Shown one piece after another: positions 13,111 through 56,577 of a stretch of DNA of 64,000 nucleotides (within the stretch, counting starts at the first letter, position 1; each line of letters opens with the position of its first letter). The stretch lies in assembly GCA_021731085.1 (NCBI GenBank), contig JAKFYB010000001.1:101266-165265 (forward strand), given 5' to 3'. Under the pieces are notes generated by a model. The model had not been told where the DNA came from. It did no database searches and saw nothing but the letters and a program-made list of their open reading frames with translations. The stretch comes from Dehalococcoidia bacterium (GTDB lineage Bacteria > Chloroflexota > Dehalococcoidia > DSTF01 > JACRBR01). Both the position numbers and the translations under genes were made by a program.

Positions 13111-13150
13111 GGAGCGCGGGCCCGCCCATGGCGGCTTTCAGCCCGCGTGT
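13111..13150. repeat. REP-like GC hairpin, divergent copy (GCGGGCCCGC ... GGCGGCTTTCAGCCCGCGTGTTC)
   Basis: Shares CTTTCAGCCCGCGTGTTC with the copy at 18774, and lies ~40 bp after the stop of the dehydrogenase-like gene. Confidence 0.5.
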
Positions 13151-13243
13151 TCGCGATGGCTCCGACCGTGCGCACTTGCGCCAAGTACAGCGACGACCGT
13201 CCGCTATTCTGAGTTCGAGATCTGAATCGAGGAGGAACCACGC

Positions 13244-13720
13244 ATGGCGGCGCCGTTTGGACATGGGTTCGTGGGGATGGCGCTCGCGCGGCGCATGGGT
13301 GTGAAGTCACCTCTCGGACTGGCGGCGGCCTTCTTCGCAGCGAGCATCCCTGATGTGGATGTCCCGATCGGCGCGATCATCGGCAAGGACATCCACCGGC
13401 AGGGCACGCACACGCCGAACTTCGCGTTGACGGCAGGCATGCTTGCTGGCATGACGGGCGTGCTCGCGGCCGAGAGCGTTGAAGGCGAACGTGACCTCAT
13501 CCTCGACGCGATGACGGGCGCCGTGATCGTCGGATCCCACCTGGTGCTGGACAAGGCGCCGTACTTCCCGGACATCCCCTTCGGCCCGAAGCTGATAGGT
13601 ATGCCGGTGGCGAACTGGGTCGTGGATGCCATCCAGTGGGGCATCGTTGCCTACTTGATCTGGCCCAAGGGCGAAGTTGATGCGCTCGGTGAACCTACGC
13701 CGGAGCATGTCGTCGCCTAG
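13244..13720 (+). CDS. Membrane-bound metal-dependent hydrolase (YdjM/DUF457-like)
   Basis: Small polytopic protein with conserved His/Asp positions as in the YdjM family. Confidence 0.45.
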   Translation: MAAPFGHGFVGMALARRMGVKSPLGLAAAFFAASIPDVDVPIGAIIGKDIHRQGTHTPNFALTAGMLAGMTGVLAAESVEGERDLILDAMTGAVIVGSHLVLDKAPYFPDIPFGPKLIGMPVANWVVDAIQWGIVAYLIWPKGEVDALGEPTPEHVVA

Positions 13721-13901
13721 CCCCAAACTTGACATCCTGGCCCTGCCCCGAAGCCGCTAATCGAACCTGAGAGCGGCTTTTTCGTGTGCCCAACTGCGAA
13801 GTTGACACGCTCGCGTGTGATTGGCGTTTGGATCAGCACGCAAGGAATGCGGCCTGCCACCGGCGGTCCCGCCGGAACCAACCCCGTAAGGCAGTCCAAA
13901 G

Positions 13902-14504
13902 ATGCACCGTATTTCCGCGCCACTGCGCGGCCGCGTGATCGCGCTGGCCGTTTCGATCTCCATCGTAATCACCGCTGCTGGCTGTGGCTCGATCGGGTTC
14001 AACCAGGCGCCAGCGAATGGGTATGTTTGGGGCTCGCAACAGCCGTTGCGCATTGCCGTCATCAACCAAGCCGGGCCGGAGTGGTCTTCGTCGCTACAGT
14101 CGTCTCTGCGGCAGTACGAGGAGGGTGCTGGCGGAAACCTGCAATTCCAGAACACGCCCGACGGCGCGAATATCGTCATCACGGTGAAGACATACACCGA
14201 CACAGCACCGCCGGACCTCGAAGGCTACGACTTTCCGCAGGGCGCAGGTGGCTTCGCGACTGTGTACGACGCGCAGGGTCTCGCGTGCAACTACCCACCG
14301 TCGACGCTGCCGCTCAACTGTTCCGGCGAGATCACCCGCACGGAGATTTGGCTGAACCTCGCTATCCCCGCGGGAAGTGACATAGAAGCGCGGCGCGGCC
14401 GACTGCTGCTCCACGAACTCGGGCACGCGATGGGGCTGACACGCCACGCGCCGACGCTCGACATCGGCATGCTCGAACAACGTTACGGCTGGGAGCACCA
14501 GTAG
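13902..14504 (+). CDS. Small secreted metzincin-like zinc metalloprotease
   Basis: Signal peptide plus the HELGHAMGLTRH motif (HExxHxxGxxH). Confidence 0.6.
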   Translation: MHRISAPLRGRVIALAVSISIVITAAGCGSIGFNQAPANGYVWGSQQPLRIAVINQAGPEWSSSLQSSLRQYEEGAGGNLQFQNTPDGANIVITVKTYTDTAPPDLEGYDFPQGAGGFATVYDAQGLACNYPPSTLPLNCSGEITRTEIWLNLAIPAGSDIEARRGRLLLHELGHAMGLTRHAPTLDIGMLEQRYGWEHQ

Positions 14505-15191
14505 TCAGGTGCGCTTCTCGCCGTAGCGGTTCCAGTGCGTCACCTGTTCGGCAGGACGGCGCGGCGCTATGCCGAACTTCCCCTTCGGCCGGCCCATCGG
14601 CACGAGCGCCACGATCTCGAACGACTCCGGCACGCCGAGGATCTCGCGCACCTCGTCTTCATGCACGCGGTAGACCGTCGTGAATGCGGTGCCGATACCC
14701 AGCGCGCGGGCGGCCAGAATGAAGTTCTGCACCGCGGGAAAGACGGACGCGTGCGTCGTCCCGATAAAGATCGGCCCCTGTTCGTCGCGCATCGTCAGGT
14801 CGATCTTCGGCATCAAGAACGCGACCATCGCTGGCGCTTCGCCGATCGTGTCGGCGAGATACCGTGATGCACGTTTCATCCTGTCGCGATGCTCGGCATC
14901 CTTCTCGTTGCGCGGCAGTGGCGCGATCTTGTTGTACGTGTTCTCAAAGCGGTGGTACGACTTCCCGTACACCTCGCCGACCGCGCGCTTGGTGCCCGGG
15001 TCGGTGATGACGAGAAACTGCCACGGTTGGATATTGCCGTTGTTTGGCGCTTGCACAGCTGCGCGCAGGCATGTCGCGATCTCTTCGTCCGTGACAGGCT
15101 CGTCGGTGTACCGGCGGATTGCCCGCGTCGTCATGATGGCGTCGAGTAGCGCTTGGTCGTTAGTCGTTGAGCGTTGGGGATCGTCAGACAT
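14505..15191 (-). CDS. Nitroreductase family protein
   Basis: RAIRRYTDEPVTDEEI N-terminal motif and nitroreductase-like length. Confidence 0.75.
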   Translation of the reverse strand: MSDDPQRSTTNDQALLDAIMTTRAIRRYTDEPVTDEEIATCLRAAVQAPNNGNIQPWQFLVITDPGTKRAVGEVYGKSYHRFENTYNKIAPLPRNEKDAEHRDRMKRASRYLADTIGEAPAMVAFLMPKIDLTMRDEQGPIFIGTTHASVFPAVQNFILAARALGIGTAFTTVYRVHEDEVREILGVPESFEIVALVPMGRPKGKFGIAPRRPAEQVTHWNRYGEKRT

Positions 15192-15255
15192 GGACGTACT
15201 CCTTCGGCATGCATTCGTCGCCCAACGACCAGGCCCAACGACTAGCGACCACCGG

Positions 15256-16443
15256 CTAGACCATCGGTGTCCCAGGATCGAGGCCGAGCATCACGCGCCC
15301 CGCCAGCTCGTAGTTCGGCAGGGCATGCATGATGTGTTGCGTCGCGGCGTGCGCGTCGCGTAGGCAGCGCTGCAGCACGCTCTTCTCGTACAGCGATGTG
15401 CCGCCGCCGAGCGTGTAGGCGATGTCAGTCGCGCGAGCGCCCTCGAACGCGGCGTGTGCGCACGCCATCCGCAGCATCGCGCGATCATGCATCGTAATCT
15501 CGACGTCGCGCACGGCCTTGTCCCACAGTTCGTCCGTAAGCTCAAACAACCAAGCACGTGCCGACCGCAGGATGGCCTCCGCCTTCGCGATCTCGACCTG
15601 CGTGATCGCCTTGTCACGAAGCTTGTTGAACGAGCCCATCGGCGTCTTCGCAGAAGCCAGCGCAACCAGCTCGTCGATCGCCCGTCGCGCGATGCCCAAC
15701 GGGATCGGCGCGATTGTCAGTGCGAGGAAGCCCAGCGTCGGGAAACGATAGTTCGGGCCGTCGACGACAGCGTTGCCGCCGTACATCTTCAGCATCCGGC
15801 CCTCGGGCACGAAGACGTCCTTCACTTCGACGTCGCGGCTGCCAGTTCCACGCAGGCCTGAGACGTGCCATGTGTCGATGATCTCGACATCCTCGACTGG
15901 AAAGACCGCTGTGCGAAAGTCCGGCATGCCGTTATTGAGCGCAGGTGAGTCGCCATCCATGACGAACGTGCCGCCGACGATGATCGAACAGTGCGTGCTG
16001 CCGCTCCCGAACGGCCACCGTCCGCTGACGCGATAGCCACCTTCGACCGGCGTCGCGCGTCCGTTCGGCGCCTGTGCGCCGCCTGATACGGCGCGTGCCG
16101 TATACATCGAGCGCGCGATGTCCTCCGGCAAGAACGCCGACACAACGGCCGTACCGTTGCCGATGCCTACCACCCAGCCGACCGATGCATCGTGGATCGA
16201 GAGTTCCTCGAGTACGCGGACCAGGTTCGGGATGGCGTCTTCGAGGCCGCCGTACACCTTGGGCGTGAAGAGATCGAACATGCGGTGCTGGTGCAGGATG
16301 TCGACGAGCGCTGGCGGGCACTGGCGCGTCTGCTCGGCTTCGTCCGCGTACTGGCGAATCGTCGGGCCGAGTTCGCGTGCTGTTGCAAGCATGTCGGTCG
16401 TCGTGGGTTGGGAAGCTGTCGCAGTCATTGTCGGCTCTCGCAT
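15256..16443 (-). CDS. Acyl-CoA dehydrogenase family protein (type-2, flavin-dependent monooxygenase-like)
   Basis: ACAD fold signatures across the 395-aa length. Confidence 0.65.
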   Translation of the reverse strand: MREPTMTATASQPTTTDMLATARELGPTIRQYADEAEQTRQCPPALVDILHQHRMFDLFTPKVYGGLEDAIPNLVRVLEELSIHDASVGWVVGIGNGTAVVSAFLPEDIARSMYTARAVSGGAQAPNGRATPVEGGYRVSGRWPFGSGSTHCSIIVGGTFVMDGDSPALNNGMPDFRTAVFPVEDVEIIDTWHVSGLRGTGSRDVEVKDVFVPEGRMLKMYGGNAVVDGPNYRFPTLGFLALTIAPIPLGIARRAIDELVALASAKTPMGSFNKLRDKAITQVEIAKAEAILRSARAWLFELTDELWDKAVRDVEITMHDRAMLRMACAHAAFEGARATDIAYTLGGGTSLYEKSVLQRCLRDAHAATQHIMHALPNYELAGRVMLGLDPGTPMV

Positions 16444-16562
16444 GCTGTTGGATGTGCTGTGCCGCGAGTATATCGCCGCGAGGCGCCAACTGGCCTGCGC
16501 TCAAGCCTGAGAAACGGATTAAAAGCGCTGCTGTGTAGGGGCGGACGCCGTTCCGTTCTCCA

Positions 16563-17672
16563 TTAGTCGACCGTGATCTTGTGGACTTTGCCGTCGAGCC
16601 CGAGCCAGTACAGAACGCCGTCCGGGCCGACGTCCAGGTCCACCGGTTGGGATAGTCCTGACATGAAGGGCACAGCGGCATACGTAGGAGCATCGAGGCG
16701 CATGATGAATCCACCATACGCGTCCGCGAAGAAGTAGTCTCCATCGAACTCGCTGGGGAAATTGTCGGCCCGGTAGAACACGGCGCCGGTTATCGCGCGT
16801 CCGGCGCTATGGTCGTACTGGTGAATCGGATCGATGCGGAATCCGTTGCAAGCTCCTTCGCAGCCGGGCCACCCGTAGTTACCGCCCTTGAAGACGAGAT
16901 TGACCTCTTCCCAATCGCTGTTTCCAACGTCATTCACGAACAACGCGCCATTCGGAGGATCAAAAGCGAAACTGAAGGGGTTTCGAAGCCCCATCGCCCA
17001 TATGCTGCGGTACTTTCCCGTCGCGAACAGGCTGAACGGATTGTCCTCGGGGACGGTCCCATCGGGGTTGACGCGCAGGATTTTCCCGTGAGTGCTCGTT
17101 AATGACTGGGCAGTGGCAGCGTCAGTGGTGTCGCCGGCTCCGATGTACAGCATCCCATCCCGGCCGAACTTGATCTCACCACCGTTGTGCTGGAGCGTTG
17201 AGCCGAGATTGCCGTCGAGCTCGAACACGACGGTTTCGCTGCCGGGGATCGACACGTCGCCGTCCGCGGTCAGGCGACTGACGCGTCCATGCGGCGGGGT
17301 GCCGGGGACGGTGTAGTGGACGTAGACGTAGGGGCTGGTGGGAAATGCTGGATCGAGCGTGATTCCGATCAGCCCTGCCTCCTGAGACGAACTCTCGACG
17401 GTCAGCACGGCAAACGGATTCGGGAGACTCTTCCCATCCTTGACCACGCTGATGATGCCGGGACGATGCGCGATGAAGATGCGACCGTCGCTGGCGACCA
17501 CGAAGGAGGAGGTAGGCACGCCCGTGTCGACGATCTCACTACTGGTGAAGCTGGCCGAGGGGCAATCCTGCCCCTCGCGATCGACGCAGTTGTCGGCGCC
17601 GTCGCCAGAGCCGTCGCCGGAACCTAGTCCGCAGCTCACGAGGAGAGGCAGGAACACCACAAGCAGCAACAT
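16563..17672 (-). CDS. PQQ-dependent soluble sugar (glucose/sorbosone) dehydrogenase, lipoprotein
   Basis: Lipobox LLVSCGL plus the GLRNPFSFAFDP and GGNYGWP beta-propeller motifs. Confidence 0.75.
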   Translation of the reverse strand: MLLLVVFLPLLVSCGLGSGDGSGDGADNCVDREGQDCPSASFTSSEIVDTGVPTSSFVVASDGRIFIAHRPGIISVVKDGKSLPNPFAVLTVESSSQEAGLIGITLDPAFPTSPYVYVHYTVPGTPPHGRVSRLTADGDVSIPGSETVVFELDGNLGSTLQHNGGEIKFGRDGMLYIGAGDTTDAATAQSLTSTHGKILRVNPDGTVPEDNPFSLFATGKYRSIWAMGLRNPFSFAFDPPNGALFVNDVGNSDWEEVNLVFKGGNYGWPGCEGACNGFRIDPIHQYDHSAGRAITGAVFYRADNFPSEFDGDYFFADAYGGFIMRLDAPTYAAVPFMSGLSQPVDLDVGPDGVLYWLGLDGKVHKITVD

Positions 17673-17833: not shown

Positions 17834-18721
17834 CTACGGCCGGACGCCGATGAGCTTCGCGACCTTGATCGCGTTGAACAGCGCGAGGGCGACGTACCAC
17901 TTCACGCGGGTGCGCGTAGCGTCCTTCGTCTCGAGGCTGCCGATCGTCTCGACCTGCAGGCCGCCGGGGGACGTCAAGCCGGCGACCGCGCCTTCGCCGA
18001 TCTGCAGCGCGTAGATGGTCGAGCAGTCGCTGCTGCTGCCGACGGTCTTCGCATCGCCGATGTAGTCGCTGATGGCGACGGGGATGCCGTCGTAGAACTG
18101 CACCATCTGGCCGAAGTCGTTGCGGTCGGCCTGCAGCAGGCTGCCCGTCGCGCGGGCGAGCGTGTTCAGCGAGCGTCGGGTGCGCTTGCTCATGAGGAGC
18201 ATGGCCGGCGGGCCGCCCTTCACTGCGTCCACCAACTCATCGAGCTTGGCGAGCGTGAGCGACGCGCCGTTTGCGCCCAGCGTCAGCGACTGGCCGCCGA
18301 CGGTGAGCTTATCGATGCCGTCGAAGGACTTCGTGTCGACGGCTGAGTCGCCGTTGAGGAACGTGTCCTCGAACTTCTGCTGCACGGCCTTCGCGCGGAG
18401 GCGAATGACGGCCGCCTGCAGGTCCTGCACGTTATTGCGCGTCGTCAGCAGGTAGTTGTCGATGTCGGCGTCGCCGCCAATGATCTTGAGCGGCGTCGTG
18501 ATCTGCGTGAACGTCGGCGTGCCCTCCGTCCATGTGTCGCCGACGTCGAAGAACGTTGCGGCGGGGTTCACGTTCTCGCGGTTGTAGGTGAGGCCGTTGC
18601 CGGTGATCTCGACGAAGGGCAGCATCTGGAGGATGGGCGACTCCTGCACGATCGTCTCGATGACGCCCTGGAGGATGATGTCGTTCGAGAGCTTCGCGCC
18701 CTCGGCCAGTGTGAGTGCCAA
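17834..18721 (-). CDS. HK97-family phage major capsid protein-like (no delta domain), TTG start
   Basis: Matches the Phage_capsid pattern: N-terminal VIETIVQESPILQMLPFVEITGNGLTY, FLNGDSAVDTKSFDGI (LNGDG motif), YDGIPVAISDYIGD (LLGRPV-like) and a C-terminal AIKVAKL. AAGGA RBS 8 nt upstream of the TTG. Confidence 0.65.
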   Translation of the reverse strand: MALTLAEGAKLSNDIILQGVIETIVQESPILQMLPFVEITGNGLTYNRENVNPAATFFDVGDTWTEGTPTFTQITTPLKIIGGDADIDNYLLTTRNNVQDLQAAVIRLRAKAVQQKFEDTFLNGDSAVDTKSFDGIDKLTVGGQSLTLGANGASLTLAKLDELVDAVKGGPPAMLLMSKRTRRSLNTLARATGSLLQADRNDFGQMVQFYDGIPVAISDYIGDAKTVGSSSDCSTIYALQIGEGAVAGLTSPGGLQVETIGSLETKDATRTRVKWYVALALFNAIKVAKLIGVRP

Positions 18722-18735
18722 TGTTGGTATCCTTG

Positions 18736-18759
18736 TGATCGGTGATCGGTGATCGGTGC
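18736..18759. repeat. Heptanucleotide tandem repeat (GTGATCG x3) in the capsid gene 5' UTR
   Basis: gtgatcggtgatcggtgatcggtg, 15 nt upstream of the capsid TTG start. Confidence 0.6.
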
Positions 18760-18773
18760 TCGTGAGCCACGTA

Positions 18774-18800
18774 GCGCGGGCTTTTCAGCCCGCGTGTTCA
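18774..18800. repeat. REP-like GC hairpin (AGCGCGGGCTTTTCAGCCCGCGTGTTC)
   Basis: 8-bp stem CGCGGGCT/AGCCCGCG with a TTTC loop, between the scaffold-like and capsid-like genes. Confidence 0.65.
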
Positions 18801-18847
18801 TCACACGCGACCAGGTTCTTGATTCTCGGTTCTCCTTCCTCGCCGGC

Positions 18848-19378
18848 CTACGACGCCCGCTGCGACAGGCCGAGGCGGATCTTCTGCTCCGGCGAGAGCG
18901 TGCTGTAGTCGGGCGCGCCGCGCGGTGGTGCGCCTGCGGGCACGCGCAACGACTGCGCCTGCGTCTCGATGTGCGTGCGGACACGGCTTACGACGTCCTT
19001 TGCGGCGCTCACGGACTGTTCTATCGTTTCGATGTCGTCGCCGCCGATCAGTTCCGCCGGCAGCTCCGGTTCCGCGCGCGCGACGAGATCGCGGTACTTC
19101 TCGGCCGCTGTTCGCAGGCGTGCCTCCGCCTGCTCGACGAACGTGCGCGCGGACTGCGCTTCGTTCGCCGATGACTCCTGCGCTTCCTGTGCCGATGCCA
19201 GTTCGTTGCGCAGCGCCGCCGCTTCGCCAATAGCCGTTGCGGCCCGTGCTTCGGCGTCTGCGGCGCCGATCTGGAGGCGTTCAACCTCCGCTCGTGATTC
19301 GGCGAGCTGTTCCTGGAGCGCCGCCAGTTCCTCGCCCGATGGGGGCGACGCGGCTTGTGAGCCGGGGTCCTTCATCAT
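18848..19378 (-). CDS. Coiled-coil protein, putative capsid scaffolding protein
   Basis: 176 aa of Ala/Glu/Gln-rich heptad-like sequence, a strong AGGAGGTG RBS, GC3-rich codons, immediately upstream of the capsid-like gene. Confidence 0.45.
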   Translation of the reverse strand: MMKDPGSQAASPPSGEELAALQEQLAESRAEVERLQIGAADAEARAATAIGEAAALRNELASAQEAQESSANEAQSARTFVEQAEARLRTAAEKYRDLVARAEPELPAELIGGDDIETIEQSVSAAKDVVSRVRTHIETQAQSLRVPAGAPPRGAPDYSTLSPEQKIRLGLSQRAS

Positions 19379-20584: not shown

Positions 20585-20629
20585 GCAGCTCACCGATAAC
20601 TCATCTTCATTTGGCGACGAGGGAGAATA

Positions 20630-24697: not shown

Positions 24698-25702
24698 ATG
24701 GCGAAGCGACTGGGACTGCAGATTGGATTCACGGGCGGGCGCGAGGAGCGGCTTGAGGTCGTCGAGCGTGTGAAGATCGCCGAGGACCTGGGTGTGGAAT
24801 CCGTGTGGGTAGCGGAGGCTTGGGGGCGCGATGCCTTCAGCATCCTGACGCAGCTAGCGCTGGCGACGGAGAAGATTCAGCTTGGCACAGCGATCGTCAA
24901 CGTGTTCAGCCGTACGCCGGCGGTGCTGGCGATGACGTTCGGGACACTGGACGACCTTTCGCAGGGTCGTGCGATCGTCGGTCTTGGCAGCAGCGGGTCG
25001 AACGTGATCGAGCACTGGCACGGCGTGCCGTTCGAGAAGCCGGCCACCCGCCTGCGGGAGTACATCCAGATCATCAACACGATCATGAAGCAGGAGAAGC
25101 TGAACTACGACGGCAAAGTCTTCAAGCTGGAGCGTGGCTTCACGGCCCAGTTCCCGACATACCGCGATCACATCCCCACGTACATCGCCTCGATCACGAC
25201 GAAGAGCGTCATCCAGACGGGCGAGATCGCAGACGGCTGGATTCCGATCTACTGGTCGAAGGACAAGATCGGCGCGGGCGTGGACATGCTGATGGAGGGC
25301 GCGAAGAAGGCGGGCAGGACGCGTGCGGACATCACGGTCGCGCCGTCCACAGTCGTACAGATCACGGATGCTGGCACCGACGAGCAGGTGCGGATGCAGG
25401 CGCGCGGGCCCATCGCCTTCTACATCGGACGCATGGGCACGTACTACTACGAAATGCTGGAAAGCCACGGCTACGAAGAAGAAGTCGCGAAGGTGAAGGC
25501 AGGTTGGGCGGCGCGCGACCCGAAGGCCGCCGCGCTCGGCGTCAGCGACCGGATGCTGGAGCAGACGGCCGTCGTTGGCCCAGTCGAAAGCTGTGCGGAG
25601 CAGCTCGACGAGCGGCGTGCGCTCGGCGTCGACCTGCCCATCATCAACATGGTCGGCCGCGACGCGATGGAGATGGGCAAGATCCTCGAGAAGCTGCTCT
25701 AG
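24698..25702 (+). CDS. LLM-class flavin/F420-dependent oxidoreductase
   Basis: Luciferase-like monooxygenase signatures; 334 aa. Confidence 0.75.
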   Translation: MAKRLGLQIGFTGGREERLEVVERVKIAEDLGVESVWVAEAWGRDAFSILTQLALATEKIQLGTAIVNVFSRTPAVLAMTFGTLDDLSQGRAIVGLGSSGSNVIEHWHGVPFEKPATRLREYIQIINTIMKQEKLNYDGKVFKLERGFTAQFPTYRDHIPTYIASITTKSVIQTGEIADGWIPIYWSKDKIGAGVDMLMEGAKKAGRTRADITVAPSTVVQITDAGTDEQVRMQARGPIAFYIGRMGTYYYEMLESHGYEEEVAKVKAGWAARDPKAAALGVSDRMLEQTAVVGPVESCAEQLDERRALGVDLPIINMVGRDAMEMGKILEKLL

Positions 25703-25750
25703 CCGGGCCATACTCGGATCGAGATGACGGAGCGCGGGCTTTTCACCCCG

Positions 25751-25776
25751 CGCTTCTTCGTGTGTCGGGAGAGCTT
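25751..25776. repeat. REP-like GC hairpin, variant (AGCGCGGGCTTTTCACCCCGCGC)
   Basis: Same element with one arm substitution, ~50 bp after the LLM gene stop. Confidence 0.6.
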
Positions 25777-33537: not shown

Positions 33538-33629
33538 CGTGCCTCCCGACCGCAAGTTGGGCGGGCGCTCTGGCCCGTCGCAGAAGTGACTTCCGAATAT
33601 ATAGTGACCGGTCGCTTGCCGCCAAGTCC

Positions 33630-33657
33630 GAGCGCGGGCTTTCAGCCCGCGTCGCCG
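33630..33657. repeat. REP-like GC hairpin (GAGCGCGGGCTTTCAGCCCGCGTCGCCG)
   Basis: ~28 bp after the ABC ATPase stop on the minus strand; near-identical over ~30 nt to the copy at 56550. Confidence 0.65.
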
Positions 33658-33684: not shown

Positions 33685-34551
33685 CTACGTAGCCGCGTGC
33701 GGCGACTCCACGTCGCCTGTCGTCGGCTCTGGGTGTTCGGCGAGCGCTTCCTGCTCTGGCGTTGCACCTTTGTGGCGGCGCGCGTACGGCATCGCGATCG
33801 TCTTGCCGGGCTGTTTCGGGTGTTCCCGGCTCGCGACCTCCACGCCGAAGACGTCACGCAGCAGTTCGGGCGTGAGCACTTCGTCCGTGGGTCCGCTGCC
33901 GACGATGCGCCCGGCGCCCATCGCCAGCACGCGGTGGGCGTACAGCGCCGCCAGCCACAGCTCGTGCATCGATAGTACGACAGTTACGCCATGCTCCTTC
34001 AGCTCCGACAGCAGATCCATGAGCTCGAACTGGTGCGCGAGGTCCAGGAAGGCCGTCGGCTCGTCGAGCAGCAACACATCCGGCCGCTGGGCGAGCGCCA
34101 TCGTCAGCCACGCGCGCCGCATCTCGCCCTGCGAGAGTTGCCGCAGTGGCCGCGCGCGAAACCCGGCCATGTTCATCGCGCCGAGCGCCCACTCGACCGC
34201 GTGCGTGTCCTCGGCAGCGTTGCGCGAGAGCAGCGACTGGTGAGGGTAGCGCCCTCGATATGCCAGCTCTTCCACCGTCAGGTCTGGGAGCCCGTCGCCG
34301 CCCTGGCCGAGAAACGCCAGTCTCTTCGCGACGGCACGGTTCGGTAGCTGGTGCAGCACTTCGCCGTCGAGCAGCACGACGCCGGTGGTTGGCTTGAGAA
34401 TGCGCGATAACACGCGTAGCAGCGTCGACTTTCCGGCGCCGTTCGGCCCGATCAGCGCCGTGATACGACGCTCCTCTATGACGAGATCGACATCCTCGAT
34501 GTGAAAGCCGTGGCCGTATCCGGCGGATAGCGCGCGTGCCTCGAGCCTCAT
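33685..34551 (-). CDS. ABC transporter ATP-binding protein (iron-siderophore/cobalamin FepC/FecE type)
   Basis: Walker A GPNGAGKST, LSQGE signature and Walker B LLLDEP, plus a ~40-aa C-terminal extension. Confidence 0.85.
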   Translation of the reverse strand: MRLEARALSAGYGHGFHIEDVDLVIEERRITALIGPNGAGKSTLLRVLSRILKPTTGVVLLDGEVLHQLPNRAVAKRLAFLGQGGDGLPDLTVEELAYRGRYPHQSLLSRNAAEDTHAVEWALGAMNMAGFRARPLRQLSQGEMRRAWLTMALAQRPDVLLLDEPTAFLDLAHQFELMDLLSELKEHGVTVVLSMHELWLAALYAHRVLAMGAGRIVGSGPTDEVLTPELLRDVFGVEVASREHPKQPGKTIAMPYARRHKGATPEQEALAEHPEPTTGDVESPHAAT

Positions 34552-36819: not shown

Positions 36820-37080
36820 CACATACAGGCGCAGACGCGCAGCAGTAGGTCTGGAAACAGCCACTAGCGAGCCGGTGATGGTGCAAGACCGGCGGCACGA
36901 CCAGATCGAACTCAGCGCCGAGCTGCCGGGGTGAATGTGGCACAGTCGTCCTCGGCTGTGAGACCTAGCCCCGACCGGGTCGCGACCGTTATCACGCTCC
37001 GAGAGTCCTTCCATGGAAGGAAAGAAGGGTGGCACCGCGGGCCTTCAACCCCGTCCCTTTATGAGGACGGGTTTTTTGTT
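36820..37080 (+). promoter_or_regulatory. Candidate T-box riboswitch leader (specifier-loop candidate GAA-CUC-A, Leu) upstream of ilvBNC-leuACD
   Basis: Exact T-box consensus AGGGUGGCACCGCG at 37026-37039, immediately before a canonical intrinsic terminator whose 5' arm (CCCU) can pair with the T-box AGGG in an antiterminator. Stem-I-like helix GGUCUGG/CCAGAUC, distal hairpin 36871-36892. No credible ORF in the interval. Confidence 0.5.
37050..37077 (+). terminator. Rho-independent terminator (CCCGTCC-ctttatga-GGACGGG + TTTTTTGTT)
   Basis: 7-bp GC-rich stem, 8-nt loop and a U6 tract, on the plus strand only. Confidence 0.7.
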
Positions 37081-39132: not shown

Positions 39133-39704
39133 GTGGTCGTTTGCACACGATCGTCGCGCTCGTCGAGAACCGGCCCGGCGTCCTGAACAAGATCGCCAGC
39201 AAGTGGCGCCAGCGTGGCTTCAACATCGAGAGCCTGACCGTCGGCCACAGCGAGACGCCCGGGCTGTCGCGCATGACATTCACCGTCGATGGCACCACGA
39301 ACGACATCGAGCAGGTCACGAAGCAGCTCTTCAAGGTGATCGAGGTCGTGAAGATCAGCGACGTCACCGAGCAGGAGACCGTCGCCCGCGAATTGGCGCT
39401 GATCAAAGTCTCGACGACGAAGGAGACCCGCAGCGCCATCATCGAGATCGTCGACATCTTCCGCGCGAAGATCGTCGATGTCGCAGTCGACTCGCTCGTC
39501 GTCGAGACGACCGGCACGGAGGACAAGGTCGATGCGCTGATCAGCATGCTGACCCCGTATGGGTTGAAAGAGCTGGTGCGCACAGGTCGCGTCGCGATGG
39601 TTCGCGGCGGCACCTCGACGGTAGGCGCGCCCCAACGCAACGGCCAGGAACGGCACTTCAAGCCCGCCGGCGAAGGCAAACCCAAAGTCGGGAGTCTAAT
39701 CTAG
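39129..39704 (+). CDS. ilvN: Acetolactate synthase small (regulatory) subunit
   Basis: ACT-domain N-terminus (LVENRPGVLNKIASKWRQRGFNIESL). ATGA overlap with the ilvB stop. ~25-aa C-terminal extension. Confidence 0.85.
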   Translation: MSGRLHTIVALVENRPGVLNKIASKWRQRGFNIESLTVGHSETPGLSRMTFTVDGTTNDIEQVTKQLFKVIEVVKISDVTEQETVARELALIKVSTTKETRSAIIEIVDIFRAKIVDVAVDSLVVETTGTEDKVDALISMLTPYGLKELVRTGRVAMVRGGTSTVGAPQRNGQERHFKPAGEGKPKVGSLI

Positions 39705-39717: not shown

Positions 39718-39745
39718 GTAGCGTGGGCTTTTCAGCCCGCGCGGT
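39718..39745. repeat. REP-like GC hairpin, variant (GTAGCGTGGGCTTTTCAGCCCGCGCGG)
   Basis: ~15 bp after the ilvN stop. Confidence 0.6.
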
Positions 39746-39851
39746 CCTGGAAGCGAGGGACAGGTTTTTAGACTAGTCCGGTGGTGATACAGACAGAACA
39801 TCTCGCCCGCACGGAGCAGGCGTATACAAAGAAGAGGGGACTACAAACCGC

Positions 39852-40850
39852 ATGCCAACGATGTACTACGAGAAGGACGCTGACCTCGGCCTGTTGAAGG
39901 GCAAGACCGTCGGCGTGATTGGATTCGGATCGCAGGGCCACGCGCACGCCCAGAACCTGAACGACAGCGGAATCGACGTCATCGTCGGCCTCTACCCAGG
40001 GTCGAAGTCGTGGGCGAAGGTCGAGGCAGCGGGCCTGCGCGTCGGTACCGTGCGTGAGGTAGCGGAAGCCGCTGACCTCATCATGCTGACTGTGCCGGAC
40101 CAGGTCGCGAAGCAGATCTACTACGACCACATCGCCGACGGCCTCAAGCCCGGCAACATGGTGCTGTGGGCCCACGGCTTCAACGTGCACTACGGACAGG
40201 TCGAGTCGCCGGAGGACGTCGACGTGACGATGGTCGCGCCGAAGGGCCCCGGGCATCTCGTGCGCCGCGTATACACCGAGGGTGGCGGCGTGCCGGCGCT
40301 CATCGCCGTCCACCAGAACGCGACCGAGAACGCGAAGCAGATCGCGCTGGCGTACGCCAAAGGCATCGGCGCGACGCGTGGCGGCGTGCTTGAGACGACG
40401 TTCAAGGAAGAGACCGAAACAGACCTCTTCGGCGAGCAGTCCGTCCTCTGCGGCGGTACGACGCAGCTCGTGAAGAGCGCCTTCGAGACGCTCGTCGAGG
40501 CCGGCTACCAGCCGGAGGTCGCGTACTTCGAGTGCATGCACGAGCTCAAGCTCATCGTCGACCTGATGTACGAGGGCGGCATGGAGTACATGCGGTACTC
40601 GATCAGCGAGACGGCTGAGTACGGCGACTACACGCGCGGCCCAGTCGTTGTCGATGCGCATGTGAAGGACAACATGAAAAAGGTGCTAGGCCAAATCCAG
40701 GACGGCACCTTCGCGAAGGAGTGGATCCTCGAGAATCAGGCAGGGCGCCCGAGCTTCAACGCGCTGCGCCGCCAGAACGCCGCACACCAGATTGAAGAAG
40801 TCGGCGCGGAGCTGCGTGGCATGATGCAGTGGCTGAAGAAGAGCAGGTAG
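39852..40850 (+). CDS. ilvC: Ketol-acid reductoisomerase (class I)
   Basis: [13 protein letters not shown] Rossmann motif and full-length similarity to KARI. Confidence 0.9.
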
Positions 40851-43826: not shown

Positions 43827-43829
43827 TAC

Positions 43830-45230: not shown

Positions 45231-45348
45231 GGTCTAGTAGCTGCGTAGCTTTAGCTGCGCCCGAGAGCGTCAGTACTAGCGGAGCTTTAGCTCCGCCGCA
45301 GAGTTCGAGCCAAGACGGGGCCTCGCCTGGCGAGTGAAAGGCAACACG

Positions 45349-48874: not shown

Positions 48875-48943
48875 GTTGAGAAGGTTACTGGTGACCGGTT
48901 ACAGGTGACAGCGCGCGGAGGGCAAAGGTGCATGGAGAATCTG

Positions 48944-49011
48944 ACCGACGACCGACGACCGACGACCGACGACCGACGACCGACGACCGACGACCGACGA
49001 CCGACGACCGA
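48944..49011. repeat. Heptanucleotide tandem repeat (GACCGAC), about 9.7 copies, between phnX and phnW
   Basis: Directly visible as gaccgacgaccgac... spanning ~68 nt in the intergenic spacer. Confidence 0.8.
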
Positions 49012-49012
49012 C

Positions 49013-49834: not shown

Positions 49835-50006
49835 GGATCCGCCGCTGGCGGTAGCTCCGAGGTCCTCAAGCGACGTTGATAACCCCTAAGTGGCGTAGGG
49901 GCCGACCTGTGTGTCGGCCCGCATGCGACGGTGCTACGTCCCGTACCGGAACGTCGGTTGGCGTGCAGCGCAAGCCCCTGGCGGCCGATATCTAAGGGGT
50001 ACACCT

Positions 50007-51263: not shown

Positions 51264-52141
51264 TGCGCCTCCTCCGCAACGAAGCGCTGATGCCGCTCTT
51301 CGCCCCGCTCCAGCGGGCCCACTCCCGCCTGACATCTAAGGACTGGGATTGGAAATTCTGGGCCAAGCGGTTCGCGCTCCTGATCCCGGCCTTCTTCCTA
51401 TTCGCCTTCGCCAACCTGATTCACGCAACACTGCGGGGCTTCGCGATCGACGTTGCACCGTTCGCGCCCGTCAATGCCGCACAGTGGGATATCGCCGTCT
51501 TCCGCAGCGTTCCTTCGATGTGGATGCAAGACGTTCTTGGCACGACCGGTTTCTGGGCGGAGTTAGCGTTCTTCTACTGGTCCAGCCTTTTCTGGCTGCC
51601 CACGCTCCTCGTCGCGCTCGTCGTCGTCGCACGAGGGCGCTGGTACTTCACGCGGCTCATCCTGCTCCAGATCGCCGTCGTCCTCTCAGCCGATGTCATC
51701 TACGCCATCGTGCCGACCCGCCCGCCATGGATGGATGTCGATGTCGTGCGCATCATCGCCATAAACAGCGACAACGGAGTGCACATCGACCGCAACCAGT
51801 ACGCCGCGCTTCCCAGCTTGCACGTCGCCGTTCCGCTCGCCTTCGCCCTTTGGTTTCATGCCTTCGAGAAGTCGGAGCCGTTGCGAAAGCTGAGTCCGCT
51901 GCTGTTTGCGTGGGCGCTCGGTATGGGATGGTCTGTGATCTACACCGGCGAGCACTACGTCGTCGACGTCGTCACCGGCTACATCTGGGCGGGCCTCATC
52001 TTCTTCGCCCTCAATCGCCTCGGCGTACTTCACGCTCGCCGTGCCGTTCAAGAAGCCGAGGCTGAGCCGGCGCCCCTACCTCTGCATCCTCCCGCACTGG
52101 AGATCCCGCTTCCCGCACCAGCGAGCGAACAGGCGGCATAG
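51263..52141 (+). CDS. PAP2-superfamily membrane phosphatase/phosphotransferase
   Basis: PAP2 motifs VPTRPPW, ALPSLHVA and YTGEHYVVDVVTG. TGATG overlap with the upstream gene. Confidence 0.65.
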   Translation: MRLLRNEALMPLFAPLQRAHSRLTSKDWDWKFWAKRFALLIPAFFLFAFANLIHATLRGFAIDVAPFAPVNAAQWDIAVFRSVPSMWMQDVLGTTGFWAELAFFYWSSLFWLPTLLVALVVVARGRWYFTRLILLQIAVVLSADVIYAIVPTRPPWMDVDVVRIIAINSDNGVHIDRNQYAALPSLHVAVPLAFALWFHAFEKSEPLRKLSPLLFAWALGMGWSVIYTGEHYVVDVVTGYIWAGLIFFALNRLGVLHARRAVQEAEAEPAPLPLHPPALEIPLPAPASEQAA

Positions 52142-52153
52142 CCATGGGTTGGC

Positions 52154-53095
52154 CTAGATGCGATCCGTATTCCACCACCGCACCGGCTCCGACCGCAGCG
52201 GTTTGCCGCGCACATCCAGCGCCTGAACCATCATCGGATGCTCGACATCCATCGTCTCGACCGTCGACGCCAGCGATCGCAGCGCTGCCGCCAGCGGGTG
52301 CGCATCCGGCGCGAGGGCGATGATGCGCTCGCCGTGCGCGACAGCCCGCTGACCAACGGCCGCGAGCAGTGCGGCGATCGCACCTTCCTGACCCGGACTG
52401 CACTCCGCCTCCAGCACCGCATGCCCATACGACCGGCACCGCGACCGGATATAGCCAGAGACGACACCATCGCGCACGGCGACGAGGCATCCGCCGTCAT
52501 CCTCATCGAGCCACGCCTGCGGGTCGCGCCACGTCCGCGCAGTACGCACGATCGCGCCCGTCGAACCAGCGATCGCCCGACGATATAGGGCCACCACTCC
52601 CGGCACGTCAGCGTCGGACATCGGCCGAACATCCCACGAACCCGCGTCCGCGAGACCAGCGACCTCCCGTGCGTCAGCCGTGAACGACGGCTCTCGCACA
52701 ATCTGATACCCAACCCGCTCGTAGAAGCCGGGGATGCCGGTGAACAGAAACGACGCCGCCATTCCCGAACGGTGCATCTCCGCGATCGCGTCCTCCAGCA
52801 GCGCCGTCGCGATGCCATGCGACCGCGCATCCGGATGCGTCGCCACCGACCCGATGCCACCGACAAGGACCGGCGTGCCGGCGATCAGCATCGTCCGCGC
52901 GAAGATCCGCACATACCCGACGACGCGCCCATCGACCACCGCCACCCGTCCGTGTCGTAACCGGAACGTAGAGTCATGCTCCGTCTGCGCCGCGAACCTC
53001 ACCGGCGATCCTTCCTTGGTGGCAAAGACAAGGTTCAGGAGCTCATAGACCTGCGTAAGCTCAGCACGCCGAACGGCTCGAATCTTGGGTTCCAT
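52154..53095 (-). CDS. GNAT-family N-acetyltransferase (two-domain)
   Basis: Two GNAT-like halves, each with acetyl-CoA-binding-like segments. Confidence 0.6.
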   Translation of the reverse strand: MEPKIRAVRRAELTQVYELLNLVFATKEGSPVRFAAQTEHDSTFRLRHGRVAVVDGRVVGYVRIFARTMLIAGTPVLVGGIGSVATHPDARSHGIATALLEDAIAEMHRSGMAASFLFTGIPGFYERVGYQIVREPSFTADAREVAGLADAGSWDVRPMSDADVPGVVALYRRAIAGSTGAIVRTARTWRDPQAWLDEDDGGCLVAVRDGVVSGYIRSRCRSYGHAVLEAECSPGQEGAIAALLAAVGQRAVAHGERIIALAPDAHPLAAALRSLASTVETMDVEHPMMVQALDVRGKPLRSEPVRWWNTDRI

Positions 53096-53160
53096 GCGGG
53101 AATCGTACCGACTGCGCCTGATAGGTCTTCGCCTGGGTCACTGCGCTAAGCTTAGGCACA

Positions 53161-53634
53161 ATGCGTAGAGTGCCGAGCCACGTCACGCTAGCCCGCTGCA
53201 GCGCCAGCGCCGTTGAGCTAGTCGCACTGATTTGCACCGGCGTCTTGCTTCTGTCGCACTCTGACTCAACATCCAGGTACGCCACGGGACTCACAGTCTG
53301 CGCCGCCATGACGGGGGCGGGTTGGCTTCTCCTGCGGATGCCGTACGTTGGTGCGCCGATCTGGCTTGGTCGTGCATTTCTCGTCGTGCTTTCTCTGAGC
53401 GCCTGGAGTTGGGTCCATGAGCGCACGAGCGCAAATCCATGTGCGCGCCAGTCGGACAGTGCCTGGGAAGACTGTGTCCAGCGGGGCGAGTACGCCGCCT
53501 ACTTCTTCGGAGGGGCAGCAGTGCTCGTACAGGTCTCGTCAACCCTCGGGGTGGTCGTGGTTCCCAATCCCGGATCCCGCCAGCCACCGAAATTGTTCAA
53601 GCCCACGGAAGGCTCGGAGGCAGGGCCTACCTGA
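53161..53634 (+). CDS. Hypothetical membrane protein
   Basis: Three or four hydrophobic helices and no recognisable motifs. Confidence 0.3.
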   Translation: MRRVPSHVTLARCSASAVELVALICTGVLLLSHSDSTSRYATGLTVCAAMTGAGWLLLRMPYVGAPIWLGRAFLVVLSLSAWSWVHERTSANPCARQSDSAWEDCVQRGEYAAYFFGGAAVLVQVSSTLGVVVVPNPGSRQPPKLFKPTEGSEAGPT

Positions 53635-53858
53635 CGCTCCTTGACTCCACCCCCGCACTGTACTTATGATCGTGGGTAGAACCGAATACGACCTGGCGGT
53701 CATACCTGCTGGCGGTACAAGCCAGTCGCCGGGCCTAGAGATTGCGAGAGCGATCCCAGGGCGCCGGCCTTTTTGTTCCCATATAGAACTCCTCCCCCCT
53801 CCACGACGTGGAGAGGGGGCCGGCCGAAGGGTCGCCTTTGGAGACGAGGTGAGGTGCA

Positions 53859-55085
53859 GTGACAGCTCCATCCGCGATACCAGCGACCACAGCCCCGATC
53901 GAAGAGATCGCCGAGCGCGCTTTGGGCGGCGAAAGCCTCACTGCGGCCGACGGCTACGCCCTCATACACGCCGACGCCACCGACCTCACGCGCATGATGG
54001 CCGCCGCCTCCGAACTGCGCGACCGCCATCATGGCCGCACGATCACGTACTCCCGCAAAGTCTTCATCCCGCTCACAAACCTCTGCCGCCAGAAGTGCGG
54101 CTACTGCACCTTTGCCCGCGGCCCCCGCGACGAGATGGCGCACACGATGTCGCCCGACGAGGTGCTCGCCGTTGCCCGAGCAGGCAAGCGGCAGGGCTGC
54201 AAGGAAGCGCTCTTCTCGCTCGGCGAGCGGCCGGAGGAGACGTACGACTTCGTCCGCGACGACCTCGCCCGCTTCGGCCACAAGACGACATCCTCGTACG
54301 TGCGAGAGATGGCAGAACTCGTTCTACGTGAGACCGGCCTCCAACCGCACATCAACCAGGGCCTCATGGAGCGCGACCAGATCGTGTCGCTGCGTGAAGT
54401 CAGCGCCTCGATGGGCATGATGCTCGAGGTCGTCTCGATGCGCCTGCACGAAAAGGGCGGCGCACACTGGAACTGCCCCGGCAAGATCCCCGAGGACCGT
54501 CTCCGCACGATGCGCATCGCCGGCGAGGAGAAGGTCGCCTGGACGACGGGCATTCTCATCGGCATCGGCGAAACGCGTGAAGAGCGCGTCGACTCGTTGC
54601 TCGCCATCCGCGACCTGCACGAGGAGTACGGCAACATCCAGGAGGTCATCGTCCAGAACTTCCGCGTGAAGGACGACATCGCCATGCGCCACAAGGACGA
54701 GCCGTCCGTGTTCGAGATGATGCGCACGATCGCGACCGCGCGCATGCTGCTCGGCGGGGAGATGAACATCCAGGCGCCACCGAACCTCACGCCCGACGCG
54801 CACGGCATGTACCTGCTCGCCGGCATCAACGACTGGGGCGGCATCTCGCCCGTCACGAAAGACCACATCAACCCCGAACGCCCGTGGCCGAACATCCTCG
54901 ACCTGCGCGAGACCTGCGCCGACGCTGGCTTCACCCTCCGCGAGCGCTTCGGCATCTACCCCGAGTACATGCGCGAAGACCCCGGCTACGAAGGCTTCGT
55001 CCCAACCCGCATCCGCGAAACAATCGAATCAATGACCGACAAAGAGGGCCTAGTAAGCAAAGAAGCAGAAGCATGGACCCTGTAG
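53859..55085 (+). CDS. cofG: FO synthase subunit 1 (7,8-didemethyl-8-hydroxy-5-deazariboflavin synthase), radical SAM
   Basis: CRQKCGYCTF radical-SAM cluster motif and CofG-like length, directly upstream of cofH. Confidence 0.85.
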   Translation: MTAPSAIPATTAPIEEIAERALGGESLTAADGYALIHADATDLTRMMAAASELRDRHHGRTITYSRKVFIPLTNLCRQKCGYCTFARGPRDEMAHTMSPDEVLAVARAGKRQGCKEALFSLGERPEETYDFVRDDLARFGHKTTSSYVREMAELVLRETGLQPHINQGLMERDQIVSLREVSASMGMMLEVVSMRLHEKGGAHWNCPGKIPEDRLRTMRIAGEEKVAWTTGILIGIGETREERVDSLLAIRDLHEEYGNIQEVIVQNFRVKDDIAMRHKDEPSVFEMMRTIATARMLLGGEMNIQAPPNLTPDAHGMYLLAGINDWGGISPVTKDHINPERPWPNILDLRETCADAGFTLRERFGIYPEYMREDPGYEGFVPTRIRETIESMTDKEGLVSKEAEAWTL

Positions 55086-55196
55086 GGCGGCCCTGCGTGG
55101 CCGCCCATCGCTGAGCAGAACGAGATAGTAGGGGCGGCCCTATGTGGGCGCCCATCGTGGACAACACAGAGCGCGATAGCGAAAGCAGACAGCCGA

Positions 55197-55224
55197 TGAC
55201 CGACGACCGACGACCAACGACCGA
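55197..55224. repeat. Heptanucleotide tandem repeat (GACCGAC x4, one variant) just 5' of the cofH start
   Basis: gaccgacgaccgacgaccaacgaccgac, the same unit as the phnX/phnW spacer repeat. Confidence 0.6.
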
Positions 55225-55237
55225 CTTCGCTCTGCCG

Positions 55238-56524
55238 ATGCGCGTCGACACCGCCGTCGCTCGCATCCTCGAACGCGCCCTCGAAGGCCACGACATCACC
55301 GTCGACGAAGCCGTCACGCTGTTCGAGACCAGCGGCCCGTCGCTTACGGCGACGATCCAAGTGGCCGACGAACTACGCCGCCGCACCGTCGGCGATGTCG
55401 TCACGTACGTCATCAACCGCAACATCAACTTCACCAACGTCTGCATCAAGCACTGCGGTTTCTGCGCCTTCTCTCGCGAATACCGGGAGGAGGCCGGCTA
55501 TTTCCTCCCGCCCGAGGAGGTCATCCGCCGCTCGCAGGAAGCGTGGGATCTCGGTGCGCGCGAGATCTGCGTGCAGGCGGGTCTGCCGCCCAAGATGGAC
55601 GGCAACTACTACATCGAGCTCACGCAGGCGATCAAGCGCGCCCTCCCCGACATGCACATCCACGGCTTCTCGCCCGAGGAAGTGCTGTACGGCGCCGTCC
55701 GATCACGCTGCACCATCCCGGAGTTCGTACAGCGACTCAAAGACGCCGGCGTCGGCAGCCTCCCCGGGACCTCCGCCGAGATTCTCGACCAGGAAGTGCG
55801 CGACGTCATCGCCCCCGGTCGCATCACGAAAGATCAGTGGATCGAGGTCATCACTTCAGCCCACAAGACCGGTATGCGCACGACGTCGACCATCATGTAC
55901 GGCCACGTCGAGACCGTCCGCCACCGCGCCGAACATATCGGCCTGCTGCGCGACATCCAGAAGGAGACCGGCGGCTTCACCGAGTTCGTGCCGCTGAGCT
56001 TCATCGCCGAAGAGGCGCCGATGTTCAAGAAGGGCCTCATCGAAGGACTGAAAGGCGGCGCGACCGGCGCCGAGGTTATCAAGATGTACGCCGTCTCACG
56101 CATCATGCTCAACAACTGGATCCCAAACATTCAGGCGTCGTGGGTGAAGGAAGGCCCGAAGCTCGCGCAGATGGCTCTCGACGCCGGCTGCAACGACTTC
56201 ATGGGCACCCTCATCAACGAAAGCATCAGCACGTCGGCCGGCGCCATCTTCGGCCAGCGCATGGCTCCGCGCGAAATGCGCGCCCTCATCCGCGAGATGG
56301 GCCGCATCCCCGCCGAGCGCAACACCCTCTACGGCATCAAGAAGCAGTTCGGCACGGTCGAAGACGAACACTTCGACCCCCTCGACCTCGTCGACGGAAG
56401 CGACGAACGCTTCGGCAGCTACGTCATGCTCACCCAAGACGACCGCTTCAAGTTCGAAGACAACTACCACCGGGCCGAACTCCCCGAGAAGCCAGCGCCC
56501 GAAAAAGTTGCGACTCAGCTCTAG
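55238..56524 (+). CDS. cofH: FO synthase subunit 2, radical SAM
   Basis: CIKHCGFCAF radical-SAM motif and CofH-like sequence throughout. Start chosen at MRVDTAV after the heptamer repeat; the ORF track begins at 55142. Confidence 0.85.
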   Translation: MRVDTAVARILERALEGHDITVDEAVTLFETSGPSLTATIQVADELRRRTVGDVVTYVINRNINFTNVCIKHCGFCAFSREYREEAGYFLPPEEVIRRSQEAWDLGAREICVQAGLPPKMDGNYYIELTQAIKRALPDMHIHGFSPEEVLYGAVRSRCTIPEFVQRLKDAGVGSLPGTSAEILDQEVRDVIAPGRITKDQWIEVITSAHKTGMRTTSTIMYGHVETVRHRAEHIGLLRDIQKETGGFTEFVPLSFIAEEAPMFKKGLIEGLKGGATGAEVIKMYAVSRIMLNNWIPNIQASWVKEGPKLAQMALDAGCNDFMGTLINESISTSAGAIFGQRMAPREMRALIREMGRIPAERNTLYGIKKQFGTVEDEHFDPLDLVDGSDERFGSYVMLTQDDRFKFEDNYHRAELPEKPAPEKVATQL

Positions 56525-56549
56525 CTCCTCGTCAGCTGCCGCGGACCCG

Positions 56550-56577
56550 GAGCGCGGGCTTTCAGCCCGCGTCGCCG
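56550..56577. repeat. REP-like GC hairpin (GAGCGCGGGCTTTCAGCCCGCGTCGCCG)
   Basis: ~27 bp after the cofH stop. Confidence 0.65.

Follow-up and report, generated by a model that had tools for sequence, protein, structure and literature searches.

Over 80 species from 8 phyla are reported to carry repetitive extragenic palindromic (REP) elements with a GTAG tag; among them are the Chloroflexi Thermomicrobium roseum and Roseiflexus castenholzii, with the family GTAG-23 (PMC3733652). According to that description (Di Nocera, De Gregorio and Rocco 2013) they are GC-rich stem-loops with a 6-13 bp stem, a short T/C-rich loop and, at the terminus, an unpaired GTAG in which positions 2-3 are degenerate. 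They occur as intergenic singletons, head-head dimers and clusters, they flank the genes of REP-associated tyrosine transposases (RAYTs), and some families are common to distant taxa and phyla. Escherichia coli REPs and bacterial interspersed mosaic elements (BIMEs), with their enzyme TnpA-REP (structure 4ER8), combine a hairpin with a 5′ GTAG foot (PMC2817692, PMC3479197, PMC8266576). The Pseudomonas systems pair a single-copy, vertically inherited RAYT with its own REP family, and the inverted doublet (REP doublet forming hairpins, REPIN) is regarded there as the replicative unit (Bertels and Rainey 2011; Bertels et al. 2017, cited in PMC6006769). We analysed a stretch of 64,000 nucleotides from a Dehalococcoidia bacterium (assembly GCA_021731085.1, contig JAKFYB010000001.1, positions 101,266 to 165,265 of the forward strand; hereafter the window). 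Six dispersed GC-rich hairpins in it belong, very probably, to a GTAG-tagged REP family of uncultured Chloroflexota that has a cognate RAYT. The traits listed above for the GTAG families recur in this one.

Exact and fuzzy pattern searches of the window defined a shared core, AGCG[C/T]GGGC-TTT(T)C-A[G/C]CCCGCG. It is present in five intact copies, with cores starting at 18773, 25731, 33631, 39720 and 56551, and, with its loop interrupted, in one more at 13113. The + strand carries all six; dinucleotide-preserving shuffles predict none. A covariance model trained on 146 copies from outside the window, and run unfiltered over both strands of the whole window, recovered exactly these sites, five of them strongly (36-48 bits) and the interrupted one at 16 bits; neither this model nor the patterns yielded any further convincing copy on either strand. 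The stem has 8-9 bp and the loop is TTTC or TTC. Folding energies in the window range from -17 to -21 kcal/mol (z from -2.5 to -5.2), and this range holds in either orientation. At its gathering threshold Rfam 15 has no family for the hairpins and reports in the whole window only a T-box leader (36823-37061).

The copies, numbered along the window, differ in how closely they follow the canonical form. Copy 5 (39718-39744, +) scores best (48 bits), with a canonical CCGTAG tag, a 3′ CGG and a G-U stem pair. Copy 2 (18771-18795, +; 46.1 bits) also has the canonical GTAG tag, together with a 9-bp stem and a TTTC loop, and folds at -17.3 kcal/mol in both orientations. A TTC loop is found in copy 6 (56549-56572, +; 44.1 bits; tag GGAG) and in copy 4 (33629-33652, +; 38.8 bits; tag CGAG), which have the 3′ flank TCGCCG in common. 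These two are identical over 28 nt (33630-33657 and 56550-56577), and their similarity runs on at 86% over 44 nt. Copy 3 (25729-25753, +, core 25731-25753; 36 bits; tag GGAG) has one stem mismatch (CACCCC). Copy 1 (13111-13148, +; 16.4 bits; tag GGAG) is atypical: an extra 13-nt mini-palindrome, ccgcccatggcgg (13122-13134), plus CTTTCA stands between its stem arms GCGCGGGC and GCCCGCGT. The covariance model counts a 19-nt loop insert, and the copy folds at -26.4 kcal/mol. Spacing between copies is irregular, from about 5.7 to 17 kb. The six-copy family had been proposed by the initial annotation, which was made from the sequence alone, and its list of positions is right except for the third copy, placed 20 nt off (at 25751-25776 instead of 25731-25753). 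It had also put the identity of copies 4 and 6 at about 30 nt; the identity is real and spans 28 nt, and the 30-mer quoted for both fits copy 4 only. The degenerate pattern that it suggested for searches, GCGSGGGCTTTYCAGCCCSGCG, is mis-specified in its 3′ half and finds a single copy.

Window genes were called with a self-trained codon model and a frame check on the GC content of third codon positions (GC3), and annotated with Pfam. Each hairpin lies shortly after a gene end, at 36, 52, 28, 32, 15 and 26 nt from the nearest upstream stop for copies 1 to 6 (range about 15-53 nt). Copies 1, 3 and 6 follow a UDP-glucose dehydrogenase-like gene (12216-13076, +), a luciferase-like monooxygenase gene (24698-25702, +) and a CofH/MqnC-like radical SAM gene (55142-56524, +), respectively; the last is in a convergent intergenic region. 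Copy 2 follows a gene for a 176-aa product (18848-19378, -) and is 50 nt upstream of the start of an HK97-capsid-like gene (17834-18721, -), in an orientation opposite to both neighbours. Copy 4 is past the stop of an ABC ATPase gene (33685-34551, -) and upstream of a DUF6855 gene (-). Copy 5 lies within the T-box-controlled ilvBN-ilvC-leuA-leuCD operon, past the end of ilvN (39141-39704); ilvC (39861-40850) begins 116 nt further on. The upstream gene is thus on the + strand for four copies and on the - strand for two, and the loop of the transcript would read UUUC in four cases and the complementary G(A)AA in two. Since the element is on the + strand every time and the gene strands are mixed, its orientation is not tied to transcription. 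No T run follows the copies on either strand, and a terminator scan lists none of them; the same scan does flag the T-box terminator (37050-37077) and other U-tract sites such as 47398-47368. Lacking a U tract, and oriented without regard to the gene strand, the hairpins are not canonical (Rho-independent) terminators. These measurements agree with the placement 15-55 bp after stops, and with the absence of a U tract, given in the initial annotation. Its statement that each hairpin lies on the strand of its gene is correct as to genes on both strands and misleading as to the element, which is + in 6 of 6 cases.

A collection of species-representative genomes was scanned with the core only and gave matches in at least 109 blocks. 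Fuzzy matching counted at least 166-171 copies among the blocks listed, mostly in metagenome-assembled genomes (MAGs) of Chloroflexota. The Chloroflexota carriers are labelled Chloroflexia, Dehalococcoidia or Anaerolineae and include a complete 3.6-Mb chromosome, OY969567.1; some carrier blocks hold genes 79-86% identical in nucleotide sequence to genes of the window. The family consensus is C-G-T-A-GCGCGGGCT-TTYC-AGCCCGCGC-G-G, with a 9-bp stem and an unpaired GTAG at its 5′ foot; for searches with mismatches it can be written as SGKAGCGYGGGCTTTYCAGCCCGCG. Immediately 5′ of the searched core, 164 copies among the matches listed have C (71%), G (93%) and T (74%); immediately 3′ of it they have C (69%), G (66%) and G (54%). 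As the tag bases lie outside the query pattern, their conservation is an independent result. Pairing is kept in 96% of the stem cells (146 copies), and at three pairs both partners have changed in a compensatory way, as from GGGC/GCCC to GGAC/GTCC. The second tag base is typical of each genome: most have GTAG, two have GCAG and others GGAG.

Position statistics were obtained from 100 high-GC records with the same gene caller as for the window (low-GC records were not gene-called). Among 146 classifiable copies, 5 are in coding sequence, which makes up 84% of the bases, 86 in co-directional spacers, 43 in convergent and 12 in divergent ones. The corresponding densities per kb are 0.008, 1.32, 2.43 and 0.36. 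Copies lie a median of 45 nt from the nearest stop, solitary ones 37 nt, and in three cases the TAG of the tag doubles as the stop codon. The enrichment after stop codons, named at the outset as the check on the proposal, is therefore found in relatives. Pooled orientations relative to the upstream gene are 82 same to 47 opposite. A strict coupling was rejected because singletons in co-directional spacers are divided only 31:22, which is not significant; orientation follows the upstream gene as a lean, not as a rule. About 60% of the copies in relatives are solitary, and 40% have a neighbour within 250 nt, in tandem arrays or inverted pairs. All inverted pairs are tag-outward (13 in the order + -, 0 in the order - +). 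Both orientations are found inside single 8-kb blocks of OY969567.1 and of other contigs, and neighbouring copies are in the same or opposite orientation in a ratio of 19:10 (p = 0.14); on these two grounds a replication or strand polarity behind the all-plus arrangement in the window was rejected.

An approximate E. coli RayT sequence, used for detection only, matched four loci by local tblastn. The genes at L004 495-1055 and L014 5680-6189 encode proteins of 169-186 amino acids with a Pfam Y1_Tnp match. They score 96 and 83 bits, respectively, with the NCBIfam model NF047646 'REP-associated tyrosine transposase' (cut-off 80), and 33-34 bits with the IS200 transposase model, below its cut-off of 55. 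Each of the two genes lies between inverted, tag-outward copies of the hairpin; in L004 the likeness between the two flanks reaches past the hairpin. Four further homologue contexts, including that in OY969567.1, have the same + ... - bracket, which is thus present at 6 of 6 RAYT loci examined. A protein search gave 51 relatives, and JGI calls some of them 'REP element-mobilizing transposase RayT'. Across 19 homologues there is no variation in the HUH motif (PDHAH) or in the Y motif (Y..H.NPV), and the best match among solved structures is 4ER8, with the HUH and Tyr regions aligned. Several called termini carry peptides encoded by the REP itself, SAGFQPAR at the N terminus and RAEKPAL or RAFQPA at the C terminus. 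In a set of 80 metagenomic RAYT loci the REP model matches 12 of the 13 with a RAYT of this clade (identity of 46% or more) and none of the 67 of other clades, so that the association of the hairpin is specific to one enzyme clade. The order trpB - RAYT - trpS-like tRNA synthetase - trpE is kept in three genomes (L112, L113/L116 and L115), in which the called RAYT stop overlaps the start of the next gene by 4 nt. A conserved neighbourhood of this kind is expected of a domesticated, vertically inherited single-copy RAYT. The RAYT-like genes of L023 and L106 were rejected as partners of this hairpin, as they are flanked by a different one, CACAGCCG...CGGCTGTG; they represent a second REP/RAYT pair.

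Comparison of orthologous spacers points to turnover of the element. Copy 5 is absent from the ilvN-ilvC spacer of OY969567.1, and copy 2 from the corresponding spacer in L102 and L023. In the window this REP lies upstream of the capsid-like gene, which has nothing on its downstream side; in L102 and L045 the REP is downstream. L023 has a different GTAG hairpin there, and L102 yet another GTAG hairpin upstream. Because orthologous spacers differ in presence and absence, these sequence comparisons indicate that copies come and go between relatives and are not conserved regulatory sites.

Set against the known systems, the family differs from each in some respects. The stem sequence does not agree with the recoverable part of GTAG-23, and GCGCGGGC does not occur in the text and supplement of the GTAG-23 paper, the published consensus of which stands only in a figure (PMC3733652). 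Nor do the R. castenholzii intragenic peptides in that supplement correspond to this hairpin, and the T. roseum copies are described as grouped into extensive blocks at a small number of loci, in contrast to a dispersed family with about 60% singletons. The present family may still coincide with one of the 24 families listed in that work. The E. coli system shares the tagged hairpin, the extragenic location after gene ends, the RAYT bracketed by inverted REPs and a monomeric-type HUH-Y1 enzyme in which the HUH and catalytic Tyr regions align. Its REPs, however, are about 35 nt long, imperfect and bulged, and mostly arranged in BIMEs with alternating orientation, whereas a perfect 9-bp stem, a tetraloop and mostly solitary copies are found here; protein identity between the enzymes is low (E = 1e-6 over about 95 residues). 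With the Pseudomonas systems the family has in common the single-copy, vertically inherited RAYT in a conserved neighbourhood, the REP family that flanks it and, in relatives, the tag-outward inverted doublets (13:0); the window, unlike Pseudomonas, is without doublets. A comparison with REP/BIME-type families, which had been proposed from the start, thus leads to a GTAG-tagged REP with a cognate RAYT clade.

Described RAYT/REP systems (PMC2817692, PMC3479197, PMC8266576, PMC3733652) suggest how such a family could behave. The unit would consist of a 9-bp GC stem, a T-rich loop of 3-4 nt and an unpaired 5′ G(T/G/C)AG foot. Hairpin and tag would together be the substrate for recognition and cleavage by the cognate single-copy RAYT (TnpA-REP), an HUH-Y1 enzyme acting on single-stranded DNA, which would cleave and rejoin nearby and in this way spread and maintain the repeats. 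The RAYT may seed, copy and prune hairpins in intergenic DNA, and insertions would survive where they do little harm, mostly just past stop codons. A transcribed copy, at the end of a message or between cistrons as in ilvN | ilvC, would form a hairpin of -17 to -21 kcal/mol, expected to impede 3′-5′ exonucleases and possibly to attenuate read-through, in either orientation. E. coli REPs are known for protecting the upstream message and for affecting read-through.

Several points weigh against assigning the window copies to such a system. Only 2 of the 6 tags are canonical (2 GTAG, 3 GGAG, 1 CGAG) and the closing pair of the stem is often G-U, for which reason the copies may be decaying or may be matched to a RAYT with altered specificity. 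All are singletons, with none of the inverted doublets (REPINs) that relatives have, and they share one orientation (two-sided p ~0.03). The approximate E. coli RayT query found no RAYT in the window by tblastn; the putative cognate enzyme comes from relatives only, in which individual genes are 79-86% identical in nucleotide sequence to those of the window. Finally, both the activity on DNA and that on RNA are predicted.

The alternative that survives best, though improbable in our judgement, is that the hairpins are terminators or attenuators without a U tract that evolved locally in a high-GC genome and were kept similar by selection, with no mobile family involved. It would account for their stable stems, for the position of all six within 15-53 nt after stops and for the 82:47 lean towards the upstream gene in relatives. 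Yet termination needs no near-identical loop and unpaired flanks (CGTAG ... CGG) across loci and genomes, and the hairpins, which have no T run and went unflagged in the terminator scan, are antisense to the upstream gene in 2 of 6 window copies and in about 36% of the copies in relatives. The genome moreover has ordinary U-tract terminators elsewhere (those at 37050-37077 and 47398-47368), and copies of the hairpin specifically flank the RAYT gene and are missing from orthologous spacers. A role in termination is possible as a secondary consequence of a REP. Of the two characters offered in the initial annotation, REP or terminator-like, the first is borne out by the tag, the extragenic and post-stop placement and the RAYT bracket in relatives, and the second is not, given the missing U tract, the independence of element orientation from the gene strand in the window and the canonical U-tract terminators that the genome has of its own.

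We consider it very improbable that the hairpins represent termini or remains of some bigger mobile element, for instance the subterminal hairpins of IS200/IS605, a MITE (a miniature transposable element with inverted repeats) or integron attC sites. The RAYT does belong to the IS200-like Y1 superfamily, and between copies 4 and 6 a 44-nt stretch is 86% identical. Nevertheless, similarity between copies stops within 25-44 nt, the window shows neither terminal inverted repeats nor target duplications nor a neighbouring TnpA or TnpB gene, and the copies have neither the length (57-141 nt) nor the conserved core sites of attC. The enzyme itself is above the RAYT equivalog cut-off and below that for IS200 transposases (33-34 against 55 bits), and its slot trpB-RAYT-trpS-trpE, conserved in three genomes, is as for domesticated single-copy RAYTs. 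CRISPR, attC and MITE readings were rejected on the irregular 5.7-17 kb spacing, the 25-44 nt extent of similarity and the absence of a direct-repeat family beyond the hairpin; the concern, raised with the first proposal, that the copies might be pieces of one larger element is answered in the same way. Hardly credible at all is a selected site for a host protein (nucleoid protein or gyrase) or for DNA uptake, its single orientation reflecting chromosome polarity: the six window copies are on one strand and E. coli REP/BIME elements bind integration host factor (IHF), gyrase and DNA polymerase I (PMC2817692, PMC3733652), but both orientations are mixed within single 8-kb blocks of OY969567.1 and other contigs, the 19:10 ratio of neighbours is not significant, and protein binding would add to a REP identity instead of replacing it.

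Recurrence of the 21-22 nt hairpin with its tag extends to genomes assigned to phyla other than Chloroflexota. The same tagged core is found in Hymenobacter, Armatimonadota, Gemmatimonadota and Opitutaceae genomes; in Hymenobacter (Bacteroidota, including an isolate genome) compensated GGAC/GTCC partner copies form tag-outward doublets, and the Armatimonadota copies have a uniform GGAG tag. This distribution could result from transfer, deep conservation, convergence or mis-binning. A tentative idea, which we think unlikely, is that neither mis-binning nor convergence is involved and that one RAYT-REP pair crossed phyla or stayed near-invariant since a deep divergence. It has a second part: REPs of this lineage lie inside a functional RNA and inside operons, in the loop of T-box Stem II, between ilvN and ilvC and between the genes for the 176-aa and the capsid-like products, and may have been co-opted there as expression-tuning modules. 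If true, the cross-phylum RAYT-REP pair would be a tractable case for studying the inheritance of REP specificity. Matches in Patescibacteria were treated as an unrelated feature and left out of the family statistics, on account of their conserved flanks and their location at tmRNA or tRNA 3′ ends. In these low-GC MAGs of Patescibacteria / Saccharibacteria (L021, L051, L075, L087, L088 and L108) an identical 21-nt core has about 12-14 nt of conserved flanks (GCCAGCCGA-core-CGAGGCGGC) and is located within about 30-35 nt of a tmRNA or tRNA 3′ end. L051 has two inverted copies 1.7 kb apart. This core may be a terminator or an integration-site feature.

Other repeats are present in the window. 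The leuC-leuD spacer has two shorter related hairpins, one (45279-45296, +; TAGCGGAGC-TTTA-GCTCCGC-CGCAG) already noticed in the initial annotation and a second, wobble-containing one (45243-45260, +; GCGTAGC-TTTA-GCTGCGC). They form a separate GTAG-type subfamily that the main covariance model does not score, and L023 has a near-identical GTAGCCGCGGAGCTTCAGCTCCGCCGCAG downstream of its capsid-like gene. GTAG hairpins of other types are found at 49895-49920 (+; GTAG-GGGCCGAC-ctgtgt-GTCGGCCC) and 55082-55106 (+; GTAG-GGCGGCC-ctgcgt-GGCCGCCC); a similar GTAGGGGCACGC...GCGTGCCC occurs upstream of the capsid-like gene in L102, at about 5140-5170. A second REP family, (G)TGG-CACAGCCG-CCC(C)-CGGCTGTG-A, is represented by three tandem copies with a 29-nt period in a convergent spacer (59534-59618, +). 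Its hairpin brackets a RAYT-type gene in L023 (gene 2770-3390, NF047646 95 bits; hairpins at 2700-2800 and 3310-3345). A second RAYT with its own hairpin in L023 means, therefore, that REP/RAYT pairs number at least two in these genomes. Upstream of ilvB, within the T-box leader (36823-37061), a 22-nt hairpin, GUGGCACAGUCG-UCCU-CGGCUGUG (36935-36962, +), is inserted, by comparison with the Rfam T-box model, into the Stem II apical loop; a REP-like element of the second family appears to have landed in the riboswitch loop. Perfect heptanucleotide tandem repeats occur in spacers or 5′ regions, (GTGATCG)x4 at 18735-18762 just upstream of the capsid-like gene, (GACCGAC)x10 at 48943-49012 and (CCGACGA)x4.7 at 55193-55225. 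L102 has a different heptamer, (GGTTCYA)x5, at the orthologous spot; these arrays recall the short heptamer repeats found in tandem in cyanobacteria.

Some genes next to the copies deserve mention. The dehydrogenase-like gene before copy 1 (UDP-glucose/GDP-mannose dehydrogenase-like) has the N-terminal and central domains and ends before the usual C-terminal UDP-binding domain, and may be truncated. The HK97-fold 'Phage_capsid' protein encoded next to copy 2 has 295 amino acids; its gene, with extreme codon bias (GC3 0.95), is kept at 83-86% nucleotide identity in three related MAGs, and no other phage genes are nearby. It is preceded by the gene of the 176-aa product, which has no Pfam match, and copy 2 lies between the two. 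The capsid-like protein and this product may be an encapsulin-like shell with its cargo. Directly 3′ of copy 5 the terminator scan flags a weak 5-bp hairpin followed by TTTTT (39744-39768, +); the copy and this adjoining U-tract hairpin are a possible compound attenuator between ilvN and ilvC.

The REP family is real and of an ordinary bacterial kind; it brings no new principle, as GTAG REPs and RAYTs are already well described, including in Chloroflexi. For the largely uncultured Chloroflexota it yields a consensus together with a sequence model, and a RAYT clade as cognate partner. Annotation is concerned as well, for the hairpins are translated into spurious N- and C-terminal extensions (SAGFQPAR, RAEKPAL) of RAYT proteins in databases, and they also give rise to over-long open reading frame calls. 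Repeats of this type complicate the assembly and binning of metagenome-assembled genomes, and recognizing them helps to interpret the 3′ untranslated regions and operon-internal spacers of these genomes.

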